DNA of 64,000 bases, taken from an uncultured Bacilli bacterium. GTDB lineage: Bacteria; Bacillota_I; Bacilli_A; RF39; UBA660. Location of the stretch: the NCBI GenBank assembly GCA_934130105.1, contig CAKOXL010000001.1, positions 3,431-67,430 of the forward strand, in the 5' to 3' direction. A program made the translations under genes and the position numbers. Positions 6,176 through 57,629 of the stretch are shown here, piece after piece. How positions within the stretch are numbered: position 1 is the first letter of the stretch; each line of letters begins with the position of its first letter. The notes beneath the pieces are model-generated. The model ran no database searches and had not been told where the DNA came from. It saw only the letters and a program-made list of their open reading frames with translations.

Positions 6176-7276
6176 ATGCTAAAAACAGCTTTAAAATTGA
6201 TACAAGAAATAGAGAATAATGGTTACAAAGCTTATATCGTAGGTGGTTTTGTTAGAGATAAAATACTTGGTATTAAATCAAATGATATTGATATTTGTAC
6301 TAATGCAAGGCCTAGTGATATTAGAAAAATATTTCCCAGCTCTTGTTTATCTAATGAGGATTATGGATCAGTTACTGTAATTATTAAAAATGTTAGGTTT
6401 GAAATTACTTCTTTTCGTAGAGAAATTACGTATTTAAATAATCGTAAACCAATTGAGTTTGAATATATTGATGATTTATTAGAGGATTTAAAAAGAAGAG
6501 ATTTTAAAATTAATACTCTTTGTATGGATAAAGATGGTAATATTATAGACTTATTAGGTGGTAATAATGATATAATTGCTCGTGAAATTAATACTGTTGG
6601 AGATAGTTATTTAAAGTTTTCTGAAGATTCATTACGTATCTTAAGAGCAGTAAGATTTGCAACTATTTTAGATTTTAGACTTAGTGATGATGTTAAACAA
6701 GCTATCATAAAAACTAAGAAATATTTAAAAAATTTATCATTTGAAAGAAAAAAAGAAGAATTGAACAAAATCTTTGCAAGCATTCACGTAAAATATGGCG
6801 TTAAATTATTATTAGCACTAGGCCTTGATAAAGAACTTGATCTTGATAATTTACGTAATATTAAGCATTTTGATGATCTAATGGGTGTATGGGCTCAACT
6901 TAATGTTTTAGATATTTACCCATTTTCTAAAAATGAGAAAGAGCTTATTAATGATATAAATAAAGTATTACCTCTTAATAATCTAGAGCCTCTAGTACTA
7001 TATAAATATGGTTTATATGTAAATAGTATAGCAGCTGATATTAAAGGTATTAATAGAAAATTAGTAACTAAAAAATATAATGAATTACCAATTAAGTGTC
7101 GTAGTGATATCTTAATTGACGGTAACAAAATAATGAGTTTACTAGGTACTAAGCCTGGCAAGTATATAAAAGATATAATTAATAATATAGAAAAAGAAAT
7201 AGTAAATGGTAATTTACCTAATGATGAAAATGATATAAAGAACTATATATTAAAATATTGGAGTACACATAACTAG
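6176..7276 (+). CDS. cca: CCA-adding tRNA nucleotidyltransferase
   Basis: YIVGGFVRDKILG...DIDI polymerase-beta-like nucleotidyltransferase head; 366 aa. Confidence 0.8.
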   Translation: MLKTALKLIQEIENNGYKAYIVGGFVRDKILGIKSNDIDICTNARPSDIRKIFPSSCLSNEDYGSVTVIIKNVRFEITSFRREITYLNNRKPIEFEYIDDLLEDLKRRDFKINTLCMDKDGNIIDLLGGNNDIIAREINTVGDSYLKFSEDSLRILRAVRFATILDFRLSDDVKQAIIKTKKYLKNLSFERKKEELNKIFASIHVKYGVKLLLALGLDKELDLDNLRNIKHFDDLMGVWAQLNVLDIYPFSKNEKELINDINKVLPLNNLEPLVLYKYGLYVNSIAADIKGINRKLVTKKYNELPIKCRSDILIDGNKIMSLLGTKPGKYIKDIINNIEKEIVNGNLPNDENDIKNYILKYWSTHN

Positions 7277-30102: not shown

Positions 30103-30876
30103 ATGAAAGAAAAACTATTAGTAAAAATAATTAAATATTTAATAGAAGAAGAAAATTATAATATCAAAATACCAAATTCTTATCATGAATTAAAAAATTT
30201 ATATAAGACACTTGTGAATATAAGACTACCAAAGCAAGTAAGTGAAGAAATTTTAAAGTTAGAAGATGCATATTTAAAATTAGAATTAAATGATAAAGAA
30301 GTAACTGATGCCAATGATTTAAAAGAAATAGATAAAAATATAATTTTGTGGCGTGGTGATATTACGACTTTAAAATGTGATGTGATTGTGAATGCAGGAA
30401 ATCACGATGGACTGGGTTGTTTTAATCCTAATCATAAATGTATTGATAACATAATCCACACGAATGCCGGTATGAGATTAAGACTTGAATGTAATGATAT
30501 TTTAAAAGGTAACAAAATAAAAAATGGCGAATTTATAGTATGTAGTGCTTATAATTTACCATCTAAAAAAGTAATCACAACAGTAGGACCTCAAGTTTTA
30601 GGAAGTATTACGAAAGAAAATGAAATAGACTTATCAAACTGTTATAAAAATACTTTAGAGTATGCTATTAAAAATAACTATAAACAAATAGCATTTCCTA
30701 GTATCTCAACAGGATTATTTTCTTACCCAATAGGAAAAGCTAAATTTATTGCTTATAATTCTGTAAAAGAAGTATTAAGTAAATATAATACCAATATAAA
30801 AGTGATTTTTAATGTCTATAGTGAGGAAGATTTACATGAATACAAAGAATTATTTGAAGATAAAAAAATTAATTGA
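30103..30876 (+). CDS. macro-domain protein (ADP-ribose binding/hydrolase) with an N-terminal extension
   Basis: ILWRGDITTLKCDVIVNAGN...GPQVLG...AFPSISTGLFSYP macro-domain motifs. Confidence 0.7.
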   Translation: MKEKLLVKIIKYLIEEENYNIKIPNSYHELKNLYKTLVNIRLPKQVSEEILKLEDAYLKLELNDKEVTDANDLKEIDKNIILWRGDITTLKCDVIVNAGNHDGLGCFNPNHKCIDNIIHTNAGMRLRLECNDILKGNKIKNGEFIVCSAYNLPSKKVITTVGPQVLGSITKENEIDLSNCYKNTLEYAIKNNYKQIAFPSISTGLFSYPIGKAKFIAYNSVKEVLSKYNTNIKVIFNVYSEEDLHEYKELFEDKKIN

Positions 30877-31681
30877 TAATAGTGATGCCATTCTAATTGG
30901 TGCTGGAGCTGGACTATCTTCATCAGCTGGAATAGACTATTCAGAAGAAAGCTTTAAAAAGAACTTTAAAGAATTAGTAGATGCTTACGGTATGACAGAT
31001 ATGTACTCATCTAGTTTTTATAAGTTTAAAACAGAAGAAGAAAGGTGGAGTTATTGGGCAAAACACATTAATTATTCTTTCATATCTAGAAAACCATTAA
31101 AAGCTTACCTTGACTTATTCAAAATAGTGGAAACCAAAAATTATTTTGTCATTACGACAAATGTAGATGGACAGTTTTTAAAATCAGGGTTTGCTAAGGA
31201 AAAAGTATTTGAAGTCCAAGGAAGTTATAGTAAAATACAGTGCTCTATTCCATGTCATAACAAATTATATGATGATACAAAGTTAGTAAAACAAATGTTA
31301 TTATCAAAAGATAACTTAAAAGTAGACACTAATTTAGTTCCATATTGTCCAATATGTCATGAAAAAATGGAAATTAATATCAGGAAAGATGATTCCTTTG
31401 TAGAAGATAGTAACTGGCATCAACTAAATAATGCCTATGAAAACTTTATAAATAGTAATATTGGTAAGAAATTAGTATTAATAGAATTAGGAGTAGGCTT
31501 TAATACACCAGGTATCATAAGATTTCCCTTTGAAAGACTAGCTTACGAATATGAAAATATTACTTTAATAAGAGTAAATGATAGATATACCGATGTAAAC
31601 TATGGACTTGAAGATAATATAAATGTTATTACTATGAAAGAAGACTGTGCTACTTTTATTCAAAATATTTTAAAGTATTGA
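30836..31681 (+). CDS. macrodomain-linked sirtuin (SirTM-class Sir2-family protein)
   Basis: Rossmann GAGAGLSSSAGIDY, TTNVDGQ, Zn ribbon CSIPCH...CPICH. Overlaps and is co-directional with the macro-domain gene. Gln occupies the position of the canonical catalytic His (EVQGS). Confidence 0.65.
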   Translation: MNTKNYLKIKKLIDNSDAILIGAGAGLSSSAGIDYSEESFKKNFKELVDAYGMTDMYSSSFYKFKTEEERWSYWAKHINYSFISRKPLKAYLDLFKIVETKNYFVITTNVDGQFLKSGFAKEKVFEVQGSYSKIQCSIPCHNKLYDDTKLVKQMLLSKDNLKVDTNLVPYCPICHEKMEINIRKDDSFVEDSNWHQLNNAYENFINSNIGKKLVLIELGVGFNTPGIIRFPFERLAYEYENITLIRVNDRYTDVNYGLEDNINVITMKEDCATFIQNILKY

Positions 31682-38928: not shown

Positions 38929-39633
38929 ATGTATGAAAATATTTTTAAAAGAGTAGAACAGAAATATCTTTTAACAGAACAACAGTACAAATTACTCTTT
39001 AAAAAAATAAACAAATATCTAAAAGAAGATAAATACTTTAAAAGTACTATCTGTAATATATACTTTGATACTATTAATAACGATTTAATCATTAACTCAC
39101 TAGAAAAACCAATATTTAAAGAAAAAATACGCCTTAGGAGTTATCAAGTACCAAGTATTAATGATGATGTTTTCCTAGAAATAAAAGAAAAATATAAAGG
39201 AGTAGTAGGTAAAAGAAGAATAAAACTTAAACTAAAAGACTTTTATAATTATTTAAAAACCAATAACTATGACAGAAATAGTCAAATCATGAATGAAATA
39301 AACTATTATTTTAAATATTATAACTTAAAACCAGCTATTTATATTGCTTATGATCGCATGAGCTATTGTGGAAAAGAAGATAAAAATCTAAGAATTACTT
39401 TTGATACTAATCTAAGAAGTAGAAATAGTGATTTAAAACTAGAATTAGGAGATGCTGGTAAATGTTATTTTAAAGATAAAAAATACATAATGGAAATAAA
39501 AACATTAGGCGCTATGCCATTATGGCTAGTAAGAAGTCTTTCTGAATTAAAAATTTATCCAACTTCATTTTCAAAATATGGAAGTATCTATCAGAAAGAG
39601 TTAAAAGAAAGGAATGATTATATATATGCTTAA
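38929..39633 (+). CDS. VTC-domain (polyphosphate polymerase-like, CYTH-fold) protein
   Basis: VEQKYLLTEQQYKLL...IRLRSYQ...GKRRIKLK pattern typical of VTC/CYTH domains. Confidence 0.55.
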   Translation: MYENIFKRVEQKYLLTEQQYKLLFKKINKYLKEDKYFKSTICNIYFDTINNDLIINSLEKPIFKEKIRLRSYQVPSINDDVFLEIKEKYKGVVGKRRIKLKLKDFYNYLKTNNYDRNSQIMNEINYYFKYYNLKPAIYIAYDRMSYCGKEDKNLRITFDTNLRSRNSDLKLELGDAGKCYFKDKKYIMEIKTLGAMPLWLVRSLSELKIYPTSFSKYGSIYQKELKERNDYIYA

Positions 39634-40297
39634 TAGCATTTTTTCAAATTCAACTTCATCAATAGAAATTCAATCAATTTTATTATGTTCACTAACATCT
39701 ATAATTTTAGGTTTAATTATTGCTTTAACACATAAACAAACTTCAAAATATAATAAAAACTTTTTAGTAACAGTAACGACTTTACCACTATTAGTACAAA
39801 CAATTATCATAATGGTCAATGGTAATTTAGGAACATCGGTAGCTATTATGGGAGCTTTTAGTTTAGTAAGATTTAGAAGCTTACCAGGAACAAGTAAAGA
39901 GATACTAAGCGTTTTCTTTGCTATGACAGTAGGACTTGCAACAGGTATGGGACACTTACTTTTTGCCTTAATAATAACTATAATAGGTTGCTTAACACTA
40001 TTTGTATTATCTAAAACAAAATTATTTGATACACCAAAACAAGAAAAAATTCTAAAAATCACAATACCAGAGAATTTAGATTATACAGAAGTATTTGATG
40101 ATATTTTTGAAAACTACACACAAAAAGTAGAATTAGAACAAGTAAAAACAACCAATATGGGAAGTATGTTTGATTTAAGTTATCGTATCATTTTAAATGA
40201 AAATGTAAATGAAAAACAATTTCTAGATGATTTAAGAGTAAAAAATGGTAATTTAAAAGTAATGATTTCACATCCATTAGAAGATAATAATTTATAA
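39614..40297 (+). CDS. DUF4956-type membrane protein (partner of VTC-domain proteins)
   Basis: 3-4 TM N-terminus and a soluble C-terminal domain; translationally coupled to the VTC gene. Confidence 0.5.
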   Translation: MIIYMLNSIFSNSTSSIEIQSILLCSLTSIILGLIIALTHKQTSKYNKNFLVTVTTLPLLVQTIIIMVNGNLGTSVAIMGAFSLVRFRSLPGTSKEILSVFFAMTVGLATGMGHLLFALIITIIGCLTLFVLSKTKLFDTPKQEKILKITIPENLDYTEVFDDIFENYTQKVELEQVKTTNMGSMFDLSYRIILNENVNEKQFLDDLRVKNGNLKVMISHPLEDNNL

Positions 40298-40307
40298 AGA
40301 GGACTAT

Positions 40308-42029
40308 ATGAAAAGAAAAAAAGATTTAATAATCTACATATTTATAATTATTATAATTGTTTTGGTATCTAGCTATCTTATACTTCAAAATAAAAATAAA
40401 AAAGAAACAGTTAATTCAACTAGTGATATAGATACAACAGTTGATATAGATAATGATTATGAATCTATTAGTTGGGATAATTATCAAAATAGTGATATTA
40501 CTCTAACTAATAGTATGACTATAACTAGTGGTGGTATTTATACTTTAACAGGTACTATTAGTGACGGCATGATTACAATAGATACAAAAGACTACGTAAA
40601 ACTTATATTAAATAATGTTAGTATAACTAATTCTAATGGTCCAGCTATCTACGTTAAAAATGCTAAAACGGTATTAATTTATTTGAATGAAGGTACTGTT
40701 AATTATCTAGAAGATTCTTCTACTTACTCTAGTGATTATGCTGATATTGATGCAACACTATACAGTAAAGATGATTTAATTTTTGATGGTACCGGAACCT
40801 TAAGTGTAAAATCTAATTATAAAGATGCTATAACGTCAAAAGACGATTTAAAAATAATTAATGGTACTTACATTATTAATTCAGAAGATGACGGTATTAA
40901 AGGAAAAGATTCAGTATATATTGTAGATGGTAAATTTTCTATAACATCAAAAGGTGATGGTATCAAATCAACTAATGAAACTAACACAAGTAAAGGTTAT
41001 ATCTTAATAGAAAATGGAGATTTTAATATAAATGCTACCTTAGATGGTATCCAAGCAGAAACTAAATTACTTATTAAGAATGGAAGTTATAATATAATAA
41101 CTGGGAATGGAAGTACCAATAATAGTAAAAAAGATACTTGGGGAAATTGGGGCAGTAAAACAAATACTGATAGTAAAAGTGCTAAAGGTTTAAAAGCAGG
41201 ATTAAGTATCGTAATTGAAGATGGAAATTTTACTTTAAACACATCAGATGATTCAATCCATTCTAATTCTTATATTGGTATCAAAGGTGGAGAATATCAA
41301 ATTTCATCAGGTGATGATGGGATACATGCTGATACTTCAATTATTATAGATGATGGCTTAATTAATATAACAGAAAGTTATGAAGGAATAGAAGCTGCTA
41401 AAATCACTATAAATAACGGTACAATAAAAGTTGTATCAAGTGATGACGGTATCAACGTAGCAGGTGGAAGCGATTCTTCAAGTATGAATAGACCTGGTGC
41501 CAATAACTATACTAATAATACTGATAACATTTTAACTATAAATGATGGTAATATCTATGTTAATGCAAGTGGTGACGGTATTGATATAAACGGAAGTGGT
41601 TATATTTATGGTGGTACTATTATAGTAGATGGACCAACTAGTAATGGTGATGGTGCGCTTGATTACGATAATGAACTAATTGTAAGTGGTGGAACATTAA
41701 TAGCAGCAGGATCAAGTGGAATGGCTCAATCAATTAGCTCAAGTTCAACTAGGTACGGTGTATTAATTAACTTTAATAATACTTATAGTGCTTTAACAGA
41801 AGTAGCAATATTAGATAAAGATGGAAATACGGTTATTTCATATGCACCAAATAAAAGTTATTCATCAATCGTTTTCTCAACTGATAAATTCGTAAAATCA
41901 GAAACATATACAATAAAAGTTGATGGTACTACATATACAAACTTCACTATTTCATCAACTTCAACCACTGTTGGTAATAGCATGATGAATGGAAATGGTG
42001 GTGCTAACCATGGCGGTGGTAGAAGATAG
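40308..42029 (+). CDS. membrane-anchored right-handed beta-helix (carbohydrate-binding-like) surface protein
   Basis: N-terminal TM anchor, then ~20 degenerate repeats of the G(D/T)G(I/T)... / SxDDGI(K/H) type typical of parallel beta-helix proteins; Gly/Asn-rich C-terminus. Confidence 0.5.
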   Translation: MKRKKDLIIYIFIIIIIVLVSSYLILQNKNKKETVNSTSDIDTTVDIDNDYESISWDNYQNSDITLTNSMTITSGGIYTLTGTISDGMITIDTKDYVKLILNNVSITNSNGPAIYVKNAKTVLIYLNEGTVNYLEDSSTYSSDYADIDATLYSKDDLIFDGTGTLSVKSNYKDAITSKDDLKIINGTYIINSEDDGIKGKDSVYIVDGKFSITSKGDGIKSTNETNTSKGYILIENGDFNINATLDGIQAETKLLIKNGSYNIITGNGSTNNSKKDTWGNWGSKTNTDSKSAKGLKAGLSIVIEDGNFTLNTSDDSIHSNSYIGIKGGEYQISSGDDGIHADTSIIIDDGLINITESYEGIEAAKITINNGTIKVVSSDDGINVAGGSDSSSMNRPGANNYTNNTDNILTINDGNIYVNASGDGIDINGSGYIYGGTIIVDGPTSNGDGALDYDNELIVSGGTLIAAGSSGMAQSISSSSTRYGVLINFNNTYSALTEVAILDKDGNTVISYAPNKSYSSIVFSTDKFVKSETYTIKVDGTTYTNFTISSTSTTVGNSMMNGNGGANHGGGRR

Positions 42030-51344: not shown

Positions 51345-51428
51345 TTTACGTATAACATCAGTAATAAGAAAATAGAAATAACTTATGATAAGATTGTAAT
51401 TAATTTAGTAAATATTAAAAAACATAAT

Positions 51429-51459
51429 AGAGAGATACTTTAGTATTTTCTCTTTTTTC
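51429..51459 (+). terminator. rho-independent terminator after the SDR gene
   Basis: agagatac...gtat-tt-tctct hairpin plus T6. Confidence 0.45.
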
Positions 51460-51516
51460 AAAACAAATCATATAATAAAAATTTTTATCTATTCCATAAG
51501 TATAAAAACATCAGTG

Positions 51517-51544
51517 TTTACTAAATGATAATTTATAGTATAAT
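51517..51544 (+). promoter_or_regulatory. putative sigma-70 promoter of cas9 (TTTACT-16-TATAAT)
   Basis: Hexamers read from the sequence; predicted TSS ~51551, giving a ~58-nt structured 5' UTR. Confidence 0.35.
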
Positions 51545-51555
51545 AAAATTATAAG

Positions 51556-51599
51556 GCGCTAGTACAGGTCTATTTAGTAGGCAGTACTACGCTTTTTTT
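51556..51599 (+). promoter_or_regulatory. intrinsic-terminator-like hairpin plus U7 in the cas9 5' UTR, immediately abutting the cas9 RBS
   Basis: gcg(c)tagtac / gtactacgc 9-bp stem with an 18-nt loop, then TTTTTTT (51593-51599); the GGAGG RBS is at 51600-51604. Confidence 0.45.
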
Positions 51600-51609
51600 G
51601 GAGGTAAAA

Positions 51610-54600
51610 GTGAATAAAGATTATATTATCGGACTTGATTTAGGAATTAATAATGTTGGGTGGTCTATTATTGATAATAGTACTAAAAAGATTGAAAAAT
51701 GTGGAGTAAGATTATTCCCAGCAAGTAATGATGCTAGTGAAAGAAGAAGTATTCGAAATGGAAGAAGAAGATTAAAAAGAAAAGATAATCGCATTCAAGA
51801 TGTTTTAAAATTATTTCAAAAGATTCATTTTCCTAATAGCCAAACAATTGATACTAAATTAATAGAAAAAAGATATTTAGGAATTCATGAAAAAATAGAA
51901 AAACAAGATATTGTTAATATTTTATGTTATTTAGTTAGTCACCGTGGTTACATTCCATTTAACGATGAAGAGGTTAACTTCGTTTCTTTAGACGGAAAAT
52001 TACCATGTGAATATTATTATGATTTATACCAAAAAACTGGAAAATATAGGGCTTTAAATTGTACGGTAAAAAATAAAGATTTAGAAAAAGAAATTGAAAC
52101 TTTATTAGAAAAACAGAGTATATATTATCCAGAGTTAAAAGATATTCATAAAGAAATATTAATAATTTTTAATAGAAAAAGAAAGTTTTGGGAAGGACCA
52201 GGTTCAATACAACAATTAACTCCATACGGAAGATTTCAAACATCAGAGCAAGTAGAAGAATATTTACACAATAAGGAAAAAAATCCTAACTATGAGAAGT
52301 ACTTATTTGAAGATTTGATTGGAAAATGTAAGATAGCTATTTTAGAAAAATGTGCACCTAAAGCTAATTTTTATGCTGAACAATTTGATCTCTTAAACGA
52401 TTTTATTAATGTGTCTATTTCAAAACCTGAAAAATTAATTTCTCAAGATAGTGTTTACTTAGATATAGATACTAAAAAATATAAATTTACTCAAGATAGT
52501 TTGAATATGATTTTTGAATATTGTATTTCCAATTCAAAAGTAGTTGTAAAGAATATGTTAAAGAAGTTGTTTGGCCTTAATATAGAAGATATTGATAATT
52601 ACCGTGTAAATAAAAAAGGTGAACCAGAATTTTCTACTATGAAATCTTATCGTATTATTTTAAAAACATTAGAAGATAATAATCTTGGAACAGAATGGCT
52701 AGAAAACATAGAGGAATATAATAGAATTATTTATTATTTAACAGTAGCACCAGGTATTGTAGAAATTACTAAAATGATCGATTTTGATGATAAAATTGAG
52801 TACTGTTTTTCTGAACAAGAAAAAGAATGTTTAAAACAAATCCATGATAAACTAAGTAAAGACGGAATTCTTAACTATCATTCTCTATCAGAGAAAGCTT
52901 TAAAAAGAGCTATTCATGATATGCTAAGTTATCAAATGAATTTTATGCAAGTTCGTAAAAAATTTGATTACGACAAAGAAGCTAGAGAATATTTTTCTAA
53001 AAACTATTCAGATAGTCGTGAAGGTATGCCTCATATAAATAGTAAATTTGTTGAGGAATTAATTGCTTCTCCTCAAGTGAAAAAGACATTAAGACAAGCA
53101 ATTAAAGTTATTAATGCTATTATTGATGAAAAAAAAGAATTACCGAAAGTAATAGTAATAGAATCTACAAAAGAAATGAATGGTAAAGAGAAAAAAGCTG
53201 AATTAAATCGTATGCAACAAAAGCAAGAGAAATTACGAACAGAAGCTAAACAAGAAATCAGTTATTTATATGGTGATGAAAATGTAACTGAAGTAAATAT
53301 CGAAAAAGTTATGCTATTTCATGAAATTAATGGACAATGTCCATACTGTAATCACCCAATTCAATTAGATGATGTTATGAATAATCGTATAGAAATTGAA
53401 CATATTTTACCTAGAAGTAAAAGCTTTGATAATTCTTACAATAATAAAACTTTAGCTTGTTCTAATTGTAATAAGGAAAAAAATAATAGAACACCATATC
53501 AGTATTTAATGCCATTAGGTAATTATGACTCTTATAAAAAAAGAATTCAATCTTTACAAAAAATTTCAGATTTTAAAAGGGAAAACTTTTTATTTGAAGG
53601 AGATATTGATAAATATAAAACTAGATTTTTTAATCGTAATTTAAGAGATACAGCTTATGCTACTAGTGCCTTAGTAGAACAAATTCAACTATTTAATAAC
53701 TATTTGAAACTAAATTATAATAATACACAAGTATTAACATTATCAACTCCAGGCCAATTAACCAGTAATATAAGAAAGCAACAAAATCTAGAAAAAGATA
53801 GAGATGACGGTAAATATCATCATGCAGTAGATGCTAGTATCATTGCTCTTATTGCAACTACACAATTAGGAAAAATATTAATTGATTCTCAGAATAATCC
53901 TAAATTTTGGAAACTTTATAAAAATGTTTTTTCTGGTATTGAAAATTATCTTTATCATTTTAATTTAGCTAATTATAAGGAACAACTAAAAGAAATTGAT
54001 AGTGATGAAAAAATAAAAATATCTTCTCAGATTCAAAAAAATCCTCAAAAGAAATTAGCAAATGCGAATATCTACAAAGTATTTAAGAAAGAAGATAAAT
54101 ATTATCGTATTGACCAAATTGATAATATTTATAAAGCTGACTTTTCTAGAAACGATACTATAAAACAATTTGATAAGTTATTTGATGAAAATGATTCTAA
54201 TATAACATTATTATGTCAAGATAATGACATTGATTTATTCAACTATTTAAAAGAAATTTACCAAACTAGAATAGCCAAAGAAAATCCTTTTGTTTCATAC
54301 TGTAGAGAATACCATAACTTAGATTCTGATAAAGACTTTGATTATTTAAAACATGGTATTCATGTACCAAGTAAGAAAGGTAACAGTCCAGTAATAGTAA
54401 AACTTCGTTATTATACTGCTATCACAACACCATACTTAATTCAAAAAGAGAATATTAATAAAAAAGAAAGTACACTACTAGCATATGATTCTTTAGCCCA
54501 ATATTGTACTCAAGTATTTATGGATTTAGAGAAAAATAAGTTTGTTTTTTTACCTATTTTTTGTATATCTGTTGATTTAAAAAGTGGTAAATTAAAAGAA

Positions 54601-54888
54601 AATGACTCTTTTTATAAAACATTATATGAAAAGTATATTCAAAATAAAAAAGTTAAGTATGTGGCAAGTTTATATAATGGTAATTATTTAGAAATTGAAA
54701 AGAAAAATGGTACTATTGTGAAAGGAGAATATCAAGGATTTCATAAAACAAATAATAAAATAGTTTTAAAAAATGATGTCTATTTTACTACTAATGATTT
54801 ATCTCTTTCTATTTTTGATATTGATGTACTAGGAAATAAGAAAAAAAGATTGACTTTTAGTGTTAAGGATTGTATATTAAAGAAGTAG
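51610..54888 (+). CDS. cas9: type II-A CRISPR-associated endonuclease Cas9 (compact, ~1093 aa from GTG)
   Basis: RuvC-I IGLDLGINNVGWSI, RuvC-II VIVIESTKE, RuvC-III YHHAVDASII, HNH IEIEHILPRSKSFDNSYNNKTLACSNCNKEKNNRTPYQYL (SaCas9-like). The GTG at 51610 is taken as the start instead of the ORF-track TTG at 51598, which lies inside the U-run. No internal stops. Confidence 0.95.
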   Translation: MNKDYIIGLDLGINNVGWSIIDNSTKKIEKCGVRLFPASNDASERRSIRNGRRRLKRKDNRIQDVLKLFQKIHFPNSQTIDTKLIEKRYLGIHEKIEKQDIVNILCYLVSHRGYIPFNDEEVNFVSLDGKLPCEYYYDLYQKTGKYRALNCTVKNKDLEKEIETLLEKQSIYYPELKDIHKEILIIFNRKRKFWEGPGSIQQLTPYGRFQTSEQVEEYLHNKEKNPNYEKYLFEDLIGKCKIAILEKCAPKANFYAEQFDLLNDFINVSISKPEKLISQDSVYLDIDTKKYKFTQDSLNMIFEYCISNSKVVVKNMLKKLFGLNIEDIDNYRVNKKGEPEFSTMKSYRIILKTLEDNNLGTEWLENIEEYNRIIYYLTVAPGIVEITKMIDFDDKIEYCFSEQEKECLKQIHDKLSKDGILNYHSLSEKALKRAIHDMLSYQMNFMQVRKKFDYDKEAREYFSKNYSDSREGMPHINSKFVEELIASPQVKKTLRQAIKVINAIIDEKKELPKVIVIESTKEMNGKEKKAELNRMQQKQEKLRTEAKQEISYLYGDENVTEVNIEKVMLFHEINGQCPYCNHPIQLDDVMNNRIEIEHILPRSKSFDNSYNNKTLACSNCNKEKNNRTPYQYLMPLGNYDSYKKRIQSLQKISDFKRENFLFEGDIDKYKTRFFNRNLRDTAYATSALVEQIQLFNNYLKLNYNNTQVLTLSTPGQLTSNIRKQQNLEKDRDDGKYHHAVDASIIALIATTQLGKILIDSQNNPKFWKLYKNVFSGIENYLYHFNLANYKEQLKEIDSDEKIKISSQIQKNPQKKLANANIYKVFKKEDKYYRIDQIDNIYKADFSRNDTIKQFDKLFDENDSNITLLCQDNDIDLFNYLKEIYQTRIAKENPFVSYCREYHNLDSDKDFDYLKHGIHVPSKKGNSPVIVKLRYYTAITTPYLIQKENINKKESTLLAYDSLAQYCTQVFMDLEKNKFVFLPIFCISVDLKSGKLKENDSFYKTLYEKYIQNKKVKYVASLYNGNYLEIEKKNGTIVKGEYQGFHKTNNKIVLKNDVYFTTNDLSLSIFDIDVLGNKKKRLTFSVKDCILKK
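54850..54878 (+). promoter_or_regulatory. putative tracrRNA promoter embedded in the cas9 3' end (TTGACT-17-TATATT)
   Basis: Canonical hexamers with 17-bp spacing; predicted TSS ~54885-54890, at the anti-repeat start. Confidence 0.4.
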
Positions 54889-54889
54889 T

Positions 54890-54978
54890 GTTTTACACTA
54901 CTCAAATTATACAGGGTTTCCTATTATAACTCTTTAATGAGGAACCCATGGAGAAGCTTAACCGGCTTCTCTTTTTTT
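54890..54978 (+). ncRNA. tracrRNA: tracrRNA (anti-repeat plus two hairpins and an intrinsic terminator)
   Basis: 54890-54915 GTTTTACACTACTCAAATTATACAGG is the reverse complement of repeat positions 11-36 with one mismatch. The following GTTTCCTATTATAAC continues imperfect complementarity (UCCUA pairs with UAGGA) with a bulge. Then come the hairpins GGTTTCCT...AGGAACCC and GAGAAGC-TTAACC-GGCTTCTC plus T7 (54972-54978). Confidence 0.75.
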
Positions 54979-54988
54979 ATTATAATTT

Positions 54989-55886
54989 ATGGCTTTTAGA
55001 AATATTTTAATAGAAAAAGCAGTAAAAGTTAGTTTAGATTTAAATAATATTGTTGTTCGTTTTGAAGAAGAGGATTATTGGATTTCATTAGATGAAATTA
55101 GTACCTTGATTATTGATGATCCAAGATGTAATGTTTCGCTTCGATTATTAATGGAATTATGTAAAAAGGGTATTAGTGTAATTTTTACTGATGAGTCACA
55201 TATGCCAGTTGGTACTTTAACTACTTTATATAATCATAGTAGAGCAGTGAAAAAGATAGAAAAACAAATCACTTGGAGTAAAGAAGAAAAAGAATTCCTA
55301 TGGACAAAGATAGTAGAAAAAAAGATTAATTCTCAAATAGATACTTTAAAATTATTGAATAAAATGGATAAAGTAGAAGTATTAGAAAATTTATTATCAA
55401 CAATGTCAAGTGGTGATTCTACTAATCGAGAAGGTATTGCTAGTAGAACATATTTTAAAGCTTTATTTGGTAGTCAATTCAAAAGATTTAATGAAGATAT
55501 TATTAACTTTTCATTAAATTATACTTATCAACTAATTCGCTCTAAATTAAGTCAAGAGATTGTAGTTAGTGGTTATCTTCCATCACTAGGAATTTGTCAT
55601 AAAAGTGAATATAACTTTTTTAAACTTAGCTGATGATTTTATTGAACCTTTTAGGCCTATAGTAGATTATTTTGTGTATGATATTTTACTAAAATCAGAA
55701 AGTGATTATTTAACGCCAAACATTAAAAGACAATTAGTAAACATTTTAAATCAAAAGATTGTGTATGAAAATTATGAATATAAAATTCATATCGTAATTC
55801 AATTTTATGTGCAAAATTTATTAAATTTCTTAGAAACTGGTGATATACAAAAAATAAAATTTCCGTCATTAATATGGATTATATAA
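54989..55886 (+). pseudogene. cas1: cas1 with a +1 frameshift in a T6 homopolymer (55616-55621)
   Basis: ORF 54989..55633 (214 aa) and ORF 55605..55886 (93 aa) are the N- and C-terminal parts of one Cas1. Deleting one T restores ...HKSEYNFLNLADDFIEPFRPIVD... (~298 aa). Confidence 0.85.
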
Positions 55887-56224
55887 ATTATTATAAACAA
55901 ATGCGAATAATTCTAATTTATGATTTACCAGTAGTCCAAGAAGAAGATAGAAAAATATATTTGAGATTTCATAAAAGTTTAATAACTTTCGGCTTTTATA
56001 TGCTTCAATTTTCTGTATATACTAAAGTAATTCAAAATGATTCATCATTTAAACAGTTAGCTAATAAATTAAATAGAATAATTCCTAACAAATGAAATGT
56101 TATACTTTTAAAAGTTACAGAGAAACAATATCAAGATATGATTTATTTAACAGGGGAAAAGAATAAATTTGATATGTTAGTAGGTGGAAAAGAATTGGTA
56201 GTATTTGGTGAAATTGATGATTAA
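55874..56224 (+). pseudogene. cas2: cas2 with an in-frame TGA at codon 74 (56093-56095)
   Basis: MDYINYYKQMRIILIYDLPVV...NRIIPNK*NVILLKVTEKQYQDMIYLTGEKNKFDMLVGGKELVVFGEIDD; the segment after the stop continues in the same frame and matches the conserved Cas2 C-terminal region. Confidence 0.85.
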
Positions 56225-57107
56225 GTTAAAAATAAGAAATGAATATGATGAATTATTTTTAAGAATTAGAAAAGATAACCATATATTAGTAGAAAATGAA
56301 TTAGGGTATAGAAATTTATACTTAAAATTTTACCAATTGATAAAAGAAAAATAAGATAATTTAATCGGATTTTTAGATGATAAATTAATCACGGGTAAGG
56401 ATTTTATTTTAATAGACTTAATGGATTTAGAAGAGTTATTAGTTATGACACAATACAAAAAAGGAAGCTTATTATTTGATTATGTTAACAGAAAATTATT
56501 AGAAAAAGTAGTAGAAATTGATAATGATTTTTATAATAAAGTATCTATTTTAGTGGAAGATGTTTTTGATAGTTTAGGTGTTAGTTATCAATTAGAAGAT
56601 AATAATCTCAAATTAATTCAATCTTTGTTACAAGTTTATATAGATTTTAAGGATATTACTTCACTTTTACAAATTATAAATAAATTGTTATTAAAAGTAT
56701 TAAGTAGTAGTGACAATAGTAAAAAGTATATTATTTTTTATAATTCTGGCATATTAAATATCGATTTTTCTAACTATGAATGCTGTTATAGTTTTGATGT
56801 TAATAAAAATTTAAATATATCTAAGTATAATTTATTGTCTACTAATTGGGTGTTGGAGTTCTATTTAGATGTTGTACAACAGCAGGTTAAGTTATTATGG
56901 CCTATACACTATACAAGTGAAATAATATATTTTTATTTAGCAAGATATTTTAAGTACTATCTTGGATTTGAAAAACTGGAATTAACTGAGCAAAATGAAA
57001 TTATTATGGCAAGTATTATTAAAAAATTATTTGGTTTTAATCAAATGGTTATTTATGATTTTTCTTTAATTGAACATAACATTAAATCTTTTCTAACTGA
57101 TTTATAA
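56217..57107 (+). pseudogene. csn2: csn2 with an in-frame TAA at codon 46 (56352-56354); intact ORF portion is 56421..57107
   Basis: An ATG at 56217 overlaps the cas2 stop (gATGAtTAA, classic coupling) and the frame is open to 56351 (MIKLKIRNEYDELFLRIRKDNHILVENELGYRNLYLKFYQLIKEK). After the TAA the same frame continues (DNLIGFLDDKLITGKDFILIDLMDLEELLVM...) into the 228-aa ORF ending at 57107. Confidence 0.65.
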
Positions 57108-57114
57108 TTAGTTA

Positions 57115-57123
57115 TGATATAAT
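57115..57123 (+). promoter_or_regulatory. extended -10 element (TGATATAAT) of the CRISPR array
   Basis: Lies 9 bp upstream of repeat 1. A second TATAAT at 57103-57108 overlaps the csn2 stop codon. Confidence 0.35.
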
Positions 57124-57131
57124 ATCTATAG

Positions 57132-57629
57132 GTTTTAGGATCCTGTATAATTTGAGTAATGTAAAACCTTATTTATTTTTTGTAAAAACGAAATTAAGTT
57201 TTAGGATCCTGTATAATTTGAGTAATGTAAAACAAAAATAAGTGATTTTCCAATAGGTGCTAAGTTTTAGGATCCTGTATAATTTGAGTAATGTAAAACT
57301 GTTTCAGTTGTATCGTAATATGTTACTTCGTTTTAGGATCCTGTATAATTTGAGTAATGTAAAACGCTTACCTTTTCATATTAGTATGAAATACTGTTTT
57401 AGGATCCTGTATAATTTGAGTAATGTAAAACATGATTTGTTGCCTATGGCGATAACATACGGTTTTAGGATCTTGTATAATTTGAGTAATGTAAAACGGA
57501 AGAAAATATATTAAAAGAAGTATTGAAGTTTTAGGATCCTGTATAATTTGAGTAATGTAAAACTGATTTTATTGAAGATTGAAACTAAGACAGGTTTTAG
57601 GATCCTGTATAATTTGAGTAATGTAAAAC
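57132..57629 (+). CRISPR. CRISPR array: 8 x 36-bp repeats (GTTTTAGGATCCTGTATAATTTGAGTAATGTAAAAC), 7 x 30-bp spacers
   Basis: Repeats at 57132, 57198, 57264, 57330, 57396, 57462, 57528 and 57594 with a strict 66-bp period. Repeat 6 carries a single C>T change (GGATCT). Spacers are unique. Confidence 0.97.

Follow-up and report, generated by a model that had tools for sequence, protein, structure and literature searches.

[quoted passage not shown] Type II-A loci of the S. thermophilus CRISPR1 and S. aureus kind, designated II-A(2), combine a smaller Cas9 with a larger Csn2-like protein (PMC4607530). Degraded type II-A systems have been described from Mollicutes, with 8 out of 21 systems affected (Ipoutcha et al. 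2019, PMC6882279). CRISPR function was also lost in the house-finch Mycoplasma gallisepticum after its host jump, mostly by truncations of cas9, with further hits in cas1 and cas2 (PMC11893278). The Cas9-only type II-C locus of Campylobacter coli clade 3 is predicted to lack spacer acquisition of its own (Pearson et al. 2015, PMC4607530).

The window, a 64-kb stretch of DNA analysed here as a whole, has a GC content of 26%, densely packed ORFs and the standard bacterial code. Between 51.6 and 57.6 kb, its forward strand carries cas9, a tracrRNA region, cas1, cas2, a fourth gene and a CRISPR array, in that order (Table 1). [quoted passage not shown] Its type is that of an SaCas9/St1Cas9-like Cas9, with the tracrRNA between cas9 and cas1 and a long, Stu0660-like Csn2. 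The parts that define type II-A were found as follows: a cas9 effector with both nuclease domains, RuvC and HNH; type II cas1 and cas2 adjoining cas9, both as pseudogenes only; csn2 as the fourth gene, the signature of the subtype; and, at the sequence level, a predicted tracrRNA with an anti-repeat and a downstream array on the same strand.

The likeness to II-A(2) systems extends to the order of cas9, tracrRNA, cas1, cas2, csn2 and array, to the 36-nt repeats and 30-nt spacers, and to a Cas9 of ~1,090 aa. It also includes the closest solved structures, which are SaCas9-type and St1Cas9 for Cas9, and II-A proteins for Cas1, as well as a predicted fold of the fourth protein that comes closest to Stu0660. 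Unlike in II-A(2), the Csn2 found here, at 296 aa, is longer than the 220-aa form and shorter than the 350-aa form, it is without a Csn2 match in Pfam or NCBIfam, and the adaptation genes are all pseudogenes. With the loci of Mollicutes and M. gallisepticum, the window shares point nonsense and frameshift mutations in a recognisable II-A locus, a lineage-specific loss and a shrinking array. In those bacteria, however, cas9 is usually truncated or the cas block deleted, and hits in cas1 and cas2 lie beside a dead cas9, whereas here cas9 is the one spared gene and the genetic code is standard. As in C. coli clade 3, cas9 and the array are kept without a working cas1 or cas2. There, cas1 and cas2 are absent, the locus is of type II-C, has no csn2 and is fixed in the clade, in contrast to the fresh mutations in a single lineage seen here. 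Overall, we consider it probable that adaptation is dead in this lineage and that the interference machinery is still functional.

Table 1 Features of the type II-A locus and their positions in the window.
Feature	Position	Strand	Description
cas9	51610..54888	+	1092 aa from the GTG start of public gene calls; ORF intact
Predicted tracrRNA	54889..54980	+	anti-repeat 54890-54915; internal hairpin 54914-54947; terminator hairpin 54950-54972, then T-run
cas1 pseudogene	54989..55886	+	+1 frameshift; 298 aa in relatives
cas2 pseudogene	55874..56225	+	GGA>TGA at 56093-56095, Gly74>stop; 73 of 116 aa
csn2-like fourth gene, pseudogene	56217..57107	+	CAA>TAA at 56352-56354, Gln46>stop; intact form 296 aa
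Leader, 24 nt	57108..57131	+	read from sequence
CRISPR array	57132..57629	+	eight 36-nt repeats, seven 30-nt spacers

Three lesions, which are genuine, lineage-specific and confined to cas1, cas2 and csn2, interrupt the adaptation genes. The initial annotation had reported all three, and its coordinates and ORF products were confirmed. For cas1, it was right about the site, where the gene is broken into ORFs of 214 aa (54989-55633) and 93 aa (55605-55886), and wrong about the base. It had proposed an extra T in a T6 run (55616-55621). A multiple alignment with six intact relatives showed that this run is ancestral, being present in the five closest relatives, and that the extra base is an A inserted at 55622-55624 (AA>AAA), right behind the run. 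An extra T was therefore rejected. The change runs from TTTTTTAAC to TTTTTTAAAC, and the ancestral Cas1 peptide reads YNFFNLADD, not YNFLNLADD.

Removal of one base restored a Cas1 with a full-length match to TIGR03639 (1-277 of 278, E 5e-83). The repaired protein aligned across the lesion with the E. faecalis Cas1 5xvn, with LADDFIEPFRP placed against LASDLMEPFRP. The nearest solved Cas1 structures came from the II-A systems of E. faecalis, S. pyogenes and S. thermophilus. The protein is cut short at residue ~212. The conserved His (CHK) lies before this point and the Asp in LADDFIEPFRP behind it, and we take both to be catalytic residues. Because the frameshift falls after the His and before the Asp, the truncated Cas1 is predicted to lack part of the catalytic triad and the entire C-terminal region.

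The in-frame TGA at codon 74 of cas2 was found as annotated, with the frame continuing beyond it into the C-terminus and running on to GEIDD and the regular stop. Matches to TIGR01573 and PF09827 span the TGA, which removes the last 43 of 116 residues. The fourth gene starts at an ATG (56217) that overlaps the end of cas2, and its TAA at codon 46 was likewise read where it had been placed. Past this TAA, the frame is open to 57107, and the remnant is called as a 228-aa ORF (56421-57107). Csn2 is left with 45 of its 296 residues; if translation restarted at Met69, the four N-terminal strands and one helix seen in the structural model would be missing. Both nonsense codons are single-base changes with respect to the six intact relatives (89-96% nucleotide identity).

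No comparable damage was found in the rest of the window, in agreement with the initial annotation. Its 58 other ORFs, with 18,149 codons in all, contain no interruption. Outside the locus, ten pairs of neighbouring ORFs looked suspicious, and proved to be separate, complete genes and not split ones (DnaD, endonuclease III, TsaB, RimI, macro, SIR2, VTC and DUF4956, plus two short ORFs without a Pfam match). No second cas1 or cas2 was detected, either in the 64 kb or in ~10 kb more of the same contig, available from an independent assembly (L004, see below). Judged by the points of truncation, the three adaptation genes would be non-functional. Since Cas1, Cas2 and Csn2 are each required and each truncated, spacer acquisition should be abolished.

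Relatives of the locus were gathered by a scan of genome collections with Cas9 and by exact-protein look-ups. Five contigs from Hadza and other gut metagenomes (L006-L010) share ~96% DNA identity with the window over the entire cas operon. A Hadza gut MAG labelled 'uncultured Bacilli' (L003) has 89% Cas9 identity, and two rabbit gut MAGs (L001 and L002) have 66-67%; L002 stops within cas9 and is uninformative on the adaptation genes. Every relative covering these genes has an intact 298-aa cas1 (sometimes called as 315 aa, a gene-caller extension), an intact 116-aa cas2 and an intact fourth gene of 296-297 aa. Intact 116-aa Cas2 alleles occurred on 17 and 27 contigs. Within the 90% clusters of Cas1 (27 members) and Cas2 (5 members), such a lesion was present only in the window's own fragments. 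Two shorter Cas2 entries (107 and 74 aa) start at an internal Met, and in both of them Gly74 and the C-terminus are normal. Three 116-aa Cas2 sequences that form a cluster of their own are intact as well. The predicted loss of adaptation is that of one lineage and is not recurrent.

Records of the broken products of 214, 93 and 73 aa exist in NCBI, ENA and Logan. They come from three contigs, the longest being an NCBI contig of 80 kb. One of these, a 74-kb ENA MEGAHIT contig (L004/L013), is the same as the window over ~16 kb, all three lesions included; the sole difference is a missing repeat-spacer unit at the trailer end. A Logan contig from run ERR7746365 (L005) is 100% identical over 5.9 kb. 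These lesion-bearing assemblies may derive from a single sample. A search of JGI metagenomes with a pattern spanning the lesions gave no match. The three lesions are known from assemblies, and are presumed to be linked on a single haplotype.

The label 'csn2', given to the fourth gene by the initial annotation, was supported by the predicted fold and not by any Pfam or NCBIfam model or by PDB sequences. Neither the window protein nor 12 homologs matched a Csn2 profile in Pfam and NCBIfam, even at E<=10, and a profile search of PDB sequences with the fourth gene found no Csn2. The family is very small, with 13 clusters in a database of 5.8 billion, and none of these 13 contains a Pfam domain. 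For the intact homolog P0038, AlphaFold2 gave a model of moderate confidence (pLDDT 74.9, pTM 0.54). Foldseek placed Csn2 structures on top of its matches to this model, the best being 3zth_A (Stu0660, the long S. thermophilus Csn2, E 5e-5), with 6qxf, 9h72, 3toc, 3s5u and 3v7f next. Because of the predicted fold, the position and the translational coupling to cas2, we accept the gene product as a putative divergent Csn2. Taking the fourth gene as csn2 places the locus among compact II-A systems of the 'smaller Cas9 plus larger Csn2-like protein' kind (PMC4607530).

The state of the effector, guide RNAs and array was assessed by sequence integrity and, for Cas9, by the pattern of substitutions. 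Cas9 matched TIGR01865 (E 6e-142) and the Pfam models HNH_4 and Cas9_RuvC, and the motifs GLDLG, IEHI, NCNKEKNN and HHAVDA (RuvC-I, HNH and RuvC-III) are present. An alternative TTG start at 51598, 12 nt upstream of the GTG, would yield 1096 aa. With L003 as outgroup, the nonsynonymous (N) and synonymous (S) substitutions in cas9 were N20/S44 for the window's branch and N16/S41 for its sister. A random single-base change in cas9 has a chance of about 6.5% of producing a stop codon. None of the 64 substitutions did so, versus ~4 expected under neutrality (P ~0.014), a constraint that is averaged over the whole ~4% branch and not over the period after the lesions, most of the divergence being probably older than these.

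In the adaptation genes, N/S on the window's branch was 2/5 for cas1, 2/2 for cas2 and 15/14 for csn2 (13/8 on the csn2 sister branch), counts too small for dN/dS to tell recent from old inactivation. Since these values are not raised, the knockouts look recent.

The 100 bp after cas9 plausibly encode the tracrRNA. They hold a 26-nt anti-repeat with 96% complementarity to the repeats, the region has a predicted fold of -24.7 kcal/mol (z -4.5), and the predicted tracrRNA is accompanied by a promoter-like site (54850-54878) and a terminator-like site. Rfam contained no family for the predicted tracrRNA or the repeats. In the leader, an extended -10-like element, TGATATAAT, is found at 57115-57123, eight bases before repeat 1, and may confer promoter activity. 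The intact close relatives share this leader, and in L003 a single base of it is different.

Seven of the eight repeats are identical and one has a C>T change at position 12; the terminal repeat is not degenerate. The window has seven spacers and L004 has six, versus 18 and 24 in the intact relatives L006 and L003. L004 is without the trailer-end spacer only, and the leader end is the same in both lesion-bearing contigs. None of the window's spacers is common to the relatives. These observations fit an array that would no longer be growing and now and then loses units.

Two of the spacers matched gut viral contigs. For spacer 5 (57432-57461), the match was perfect in two IMG/VR viral contigs and had a single, PAM-distal mismatch in another two; its protospacer is ATGATTTGTTGCCTATGGCGATAACATACG, with the 3' flank GTATGTC. 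Spacer 4 (57366-57395) matched 13 viral contigs with three mismatches at the PAM-distal end, and the 3' flank there is GACAGTT. Spacers 2, 3 and 7 had no match in IMG/VR, and none of the seven spacers matched the INPHARED phages. A regulatory or self-targeting role, raised as an option by the initial annotation, found no support: no spacer matched the window itself with up to 6 mismatches, and two matched viral contigs.

An alternative is that the whole locus is decaying neutrally, so that the adaptation genes happened to go first and cas9 is intact by chance for now. We regard this as unlikely. With an even spread of lesions along the 5.4-kb operon (3.3 kb of cas9 and 2.1 kb of adaptation genes), the chance that none of the three falls in cas9 is (2.1/5.4)^3 ~0.06, which is not decisive. 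The array is short, one spacer was lost between otherwise identical contigs, and complete degradation of II-A systems is common, as in 8 of 21 Mollicutes systems (PMC6882279) and in M. gallisepticum after its host jump (PMC11893278). Moreover, the lesions look recent, so cas9 may have lacked the time to be struck. Against this stands the state of the remaining locus: cas9 is without nonsense or frameshift mutations, has kept its catalytic motifs and shows an N/S as low as that of the sister clade; all but one of the eight repeats are perfect; and neither the tracrRNA region nor the leader has changed. In the documented decaying II-A loci, the usual victim is cas9. The initial annotation had described specific decay of acquisition with targeting retained. 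The first part stood, in that the lesions are specific to adaptation and cas9, tracrRNA, leader and repeats are intact in sequence, whereas the case for selective retention of Cas9 is less strong than the annotation suggested.

The second alternative is that loss of acquisition was itself selected, for example against the costly uptake of self-spacers, and that Cas9 was retained as a fixed anti-phage memory or in another role, an explanation that we hold to be very improbable. Slightly less improbable, though still quite doubtful, is selected loss driven by autoimmune uptake or by toxic partial adaptation complexes, with Cas9 and the frozen, phage-matching array actively maintained as a non-updating memory. 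Selection against acquisition would explain the rapid triple hit. Three knockouts within 2.1 kb, at an N/S that is not raised, suggest that the hits came fast compared with background substitutions. Matches to circulating viral contigs persist for two spacers, and one driver that has been proposed for CRISPR degradation is autoimmunity (PMC6882279). However, there is no obvious selection for a second and third knockout once the first is present, and the numbers are too low to test a rate. Only one lineage shows the loss, the 90% clusters of Cas1 and Cas2 being otherwise intact. Furthermore, both nonsense changes run GC>AT. In a genome with 26% GC, this is the direction in which mutation is expected to be favoured.

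The window uses the standard genetic code. The stop codons of its 58 ORFs are TAA (38), TAG (13) and TGA (7), none of the 18,149 codons is an in-frame TGA, and 104 TGG codons specify Trp. Recoding of TGA or TAA, which the initial annotation had named as a finding that would count against it, was excluded by this stop-codon and Trp-codon usage: neither codon is reassigned, and both serve as terminators. Runs of A3 and T6 are too short for efficient slippage. That the lesions are a sequencing or assembly artefact, a chimeric metagenome consensus, or read through by recoding or programmed frameshifting can be dismissed as extremely improbable: the source is evidently a metagenome assembly and the indel adjoins a homopolymer, but three different assembly pipelines gave the identical sequence, two of the three lesions are substitutions and not homopolymer miscounts, no other gene in the 64 kb is broken, and TGA ends 7 of 58 genes and is never found in frame, with TAA as the main stop. 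The earlier argument against random sequencing error was upheld on the same grounds, agreement between independent assemblies and no other split gene in the window.

The explanation that we prefer is the loss of adaptation with interference kept. According to it, spacer acquisition would have been lost recently in one lineage by three independent single-base mutations. Established II-A biology suggests that the first knockout abolished adaptation; the later ones could then have piled up free of cost, because the first hit had already ended the process. Judging by their intact sequences only, Cas9, the tracrRNA and the array, the last with a -10-like element of its own in the leader, could still produce guide RNAs and cut phage DNA that matches them. 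This would leave the cell with a frozen, slowly shrinking memory of seven spacers.

This case is one of ordinary CRISPR decay and involves no new mechanism, as both degraded II-A loci and Cas9-only loci are already documented. It differs from the known cases only in the genes that were struck, in its host, which is an uncultured gut member of the Bacilli, and in a Csn2 family without a curated sequence model. The locus offers a compact Cas9 (1,092 aa) with a defined predicted tracrRNA and two natural protospacers, and it points to a Csn2 family that is missed by current profile libraries. It is a clean natural example of a II-A system coming apart, with intact sister alleles at hand for comparison and an effector that still seems to be in working order, and may be of use as a small case study of the sequence in which gut bacteria lose their CRISPR modules.

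The predicted intrinsic terminator of the tracrRNA lies between cas9 and cas1, so that the adaptation genes would need either their own promoter or read-through. A promoter-like sequence (TTAACC-17-TATAAT, 54958-54986) ends 3 nt 5' of the cas1 ATG, and a transcript starting from it would be almost leaderless. Upstream of cas9, relatives carry a ~274-aa ORF (Hadza gut MAG L003, 6988-7812) that separates cas9 from a short-chain dehydrogenase gene, whereas the window has just a 265-bp intergenic stretch at this site (51345-51609; compared with L003 and with gut-metagenome relative L007, 1-294). This is an insertion/deletion polymorphism immediately 5' of cas9.

Coordinates of array, protospacer and gene features
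Feature	Location	Details
tracrRNA terminator (predicted, intrinsic)	window 54950-54979	between cas9 and cas1
csn2-like gene	window 56217-57107	homologs P0038-P0049; L001 4789-5682
Sixth array repeat	window 57462-57497	C>T at position 12 (GGATCTTG)
Terminal array repeat	window 57594-57629	perfect copy
Spacer 5 protospacers	L015 2600-2644; L016 ~6852-6896	3' flank on minus strand, GTATGTC
Spacer 4 protospacers	L018-L030	3' flank GACAGTT

In relatives with intact adaptation genes, the repeats at the array end were degenerate, with 4-8 mismatches (L003 15114-15149; gut-metagenome relative L006, 6966-7001). The perfect terminal repeat of the window array suggests, by comparison, that the array became short through an internal or terminal deletion between repeats. 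A contig sharing the three lesions of the window (L004) lacked the last spacer unit and was in other respects identical to the window. The variant in the sixth repeat also occurred in trailer-side repeats of L003 and of the rabbit gut MAG L001; it may thus be a repeat allele of older origin and not a new mutation.

The protospacers of spacers 5 and 4 were located on viral contigs. A G at +1 and a GT at +5/+6 were common to both 3' flanks, which hints, on the basis of two spacers only, at a candidate PAM for the compact Cas9.

Two other gene clusters were observed in the window. Two neighbouring genes at 30103-31681 overlap each other; one encodes a 257-aa macro-domain protein and the other a 289-aa SIR2-family protein, a combination that brings to mind modules for NAD-linked defence or for ADP-ribosylation. 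A cluster of three genes at 38929-42029 may be polyphosphate-related; its products are a protein with a VTC domain, a DUF4956 protein and a third protein of 573 aa. The cluster was examined for split genes, and the VTC and DUF4956 ORFs proved to be whole genes in their own right.

The Csn2-like protein is a member of a very small family, which accounts for 13 of 5.8 billion clusters. Neither Pfam nor NCBIfam has a model that matched the window protein or its 12 homologs, and no sequence-level relation to known Csn2 was found. The putative identity of the fourth-gene product as Csn2 comes from the predicted fold alone, with Stu0660 as the nearest structure. Annotation by profiles would overlook this family, and loci of this type could thus be mistyped as II-C.
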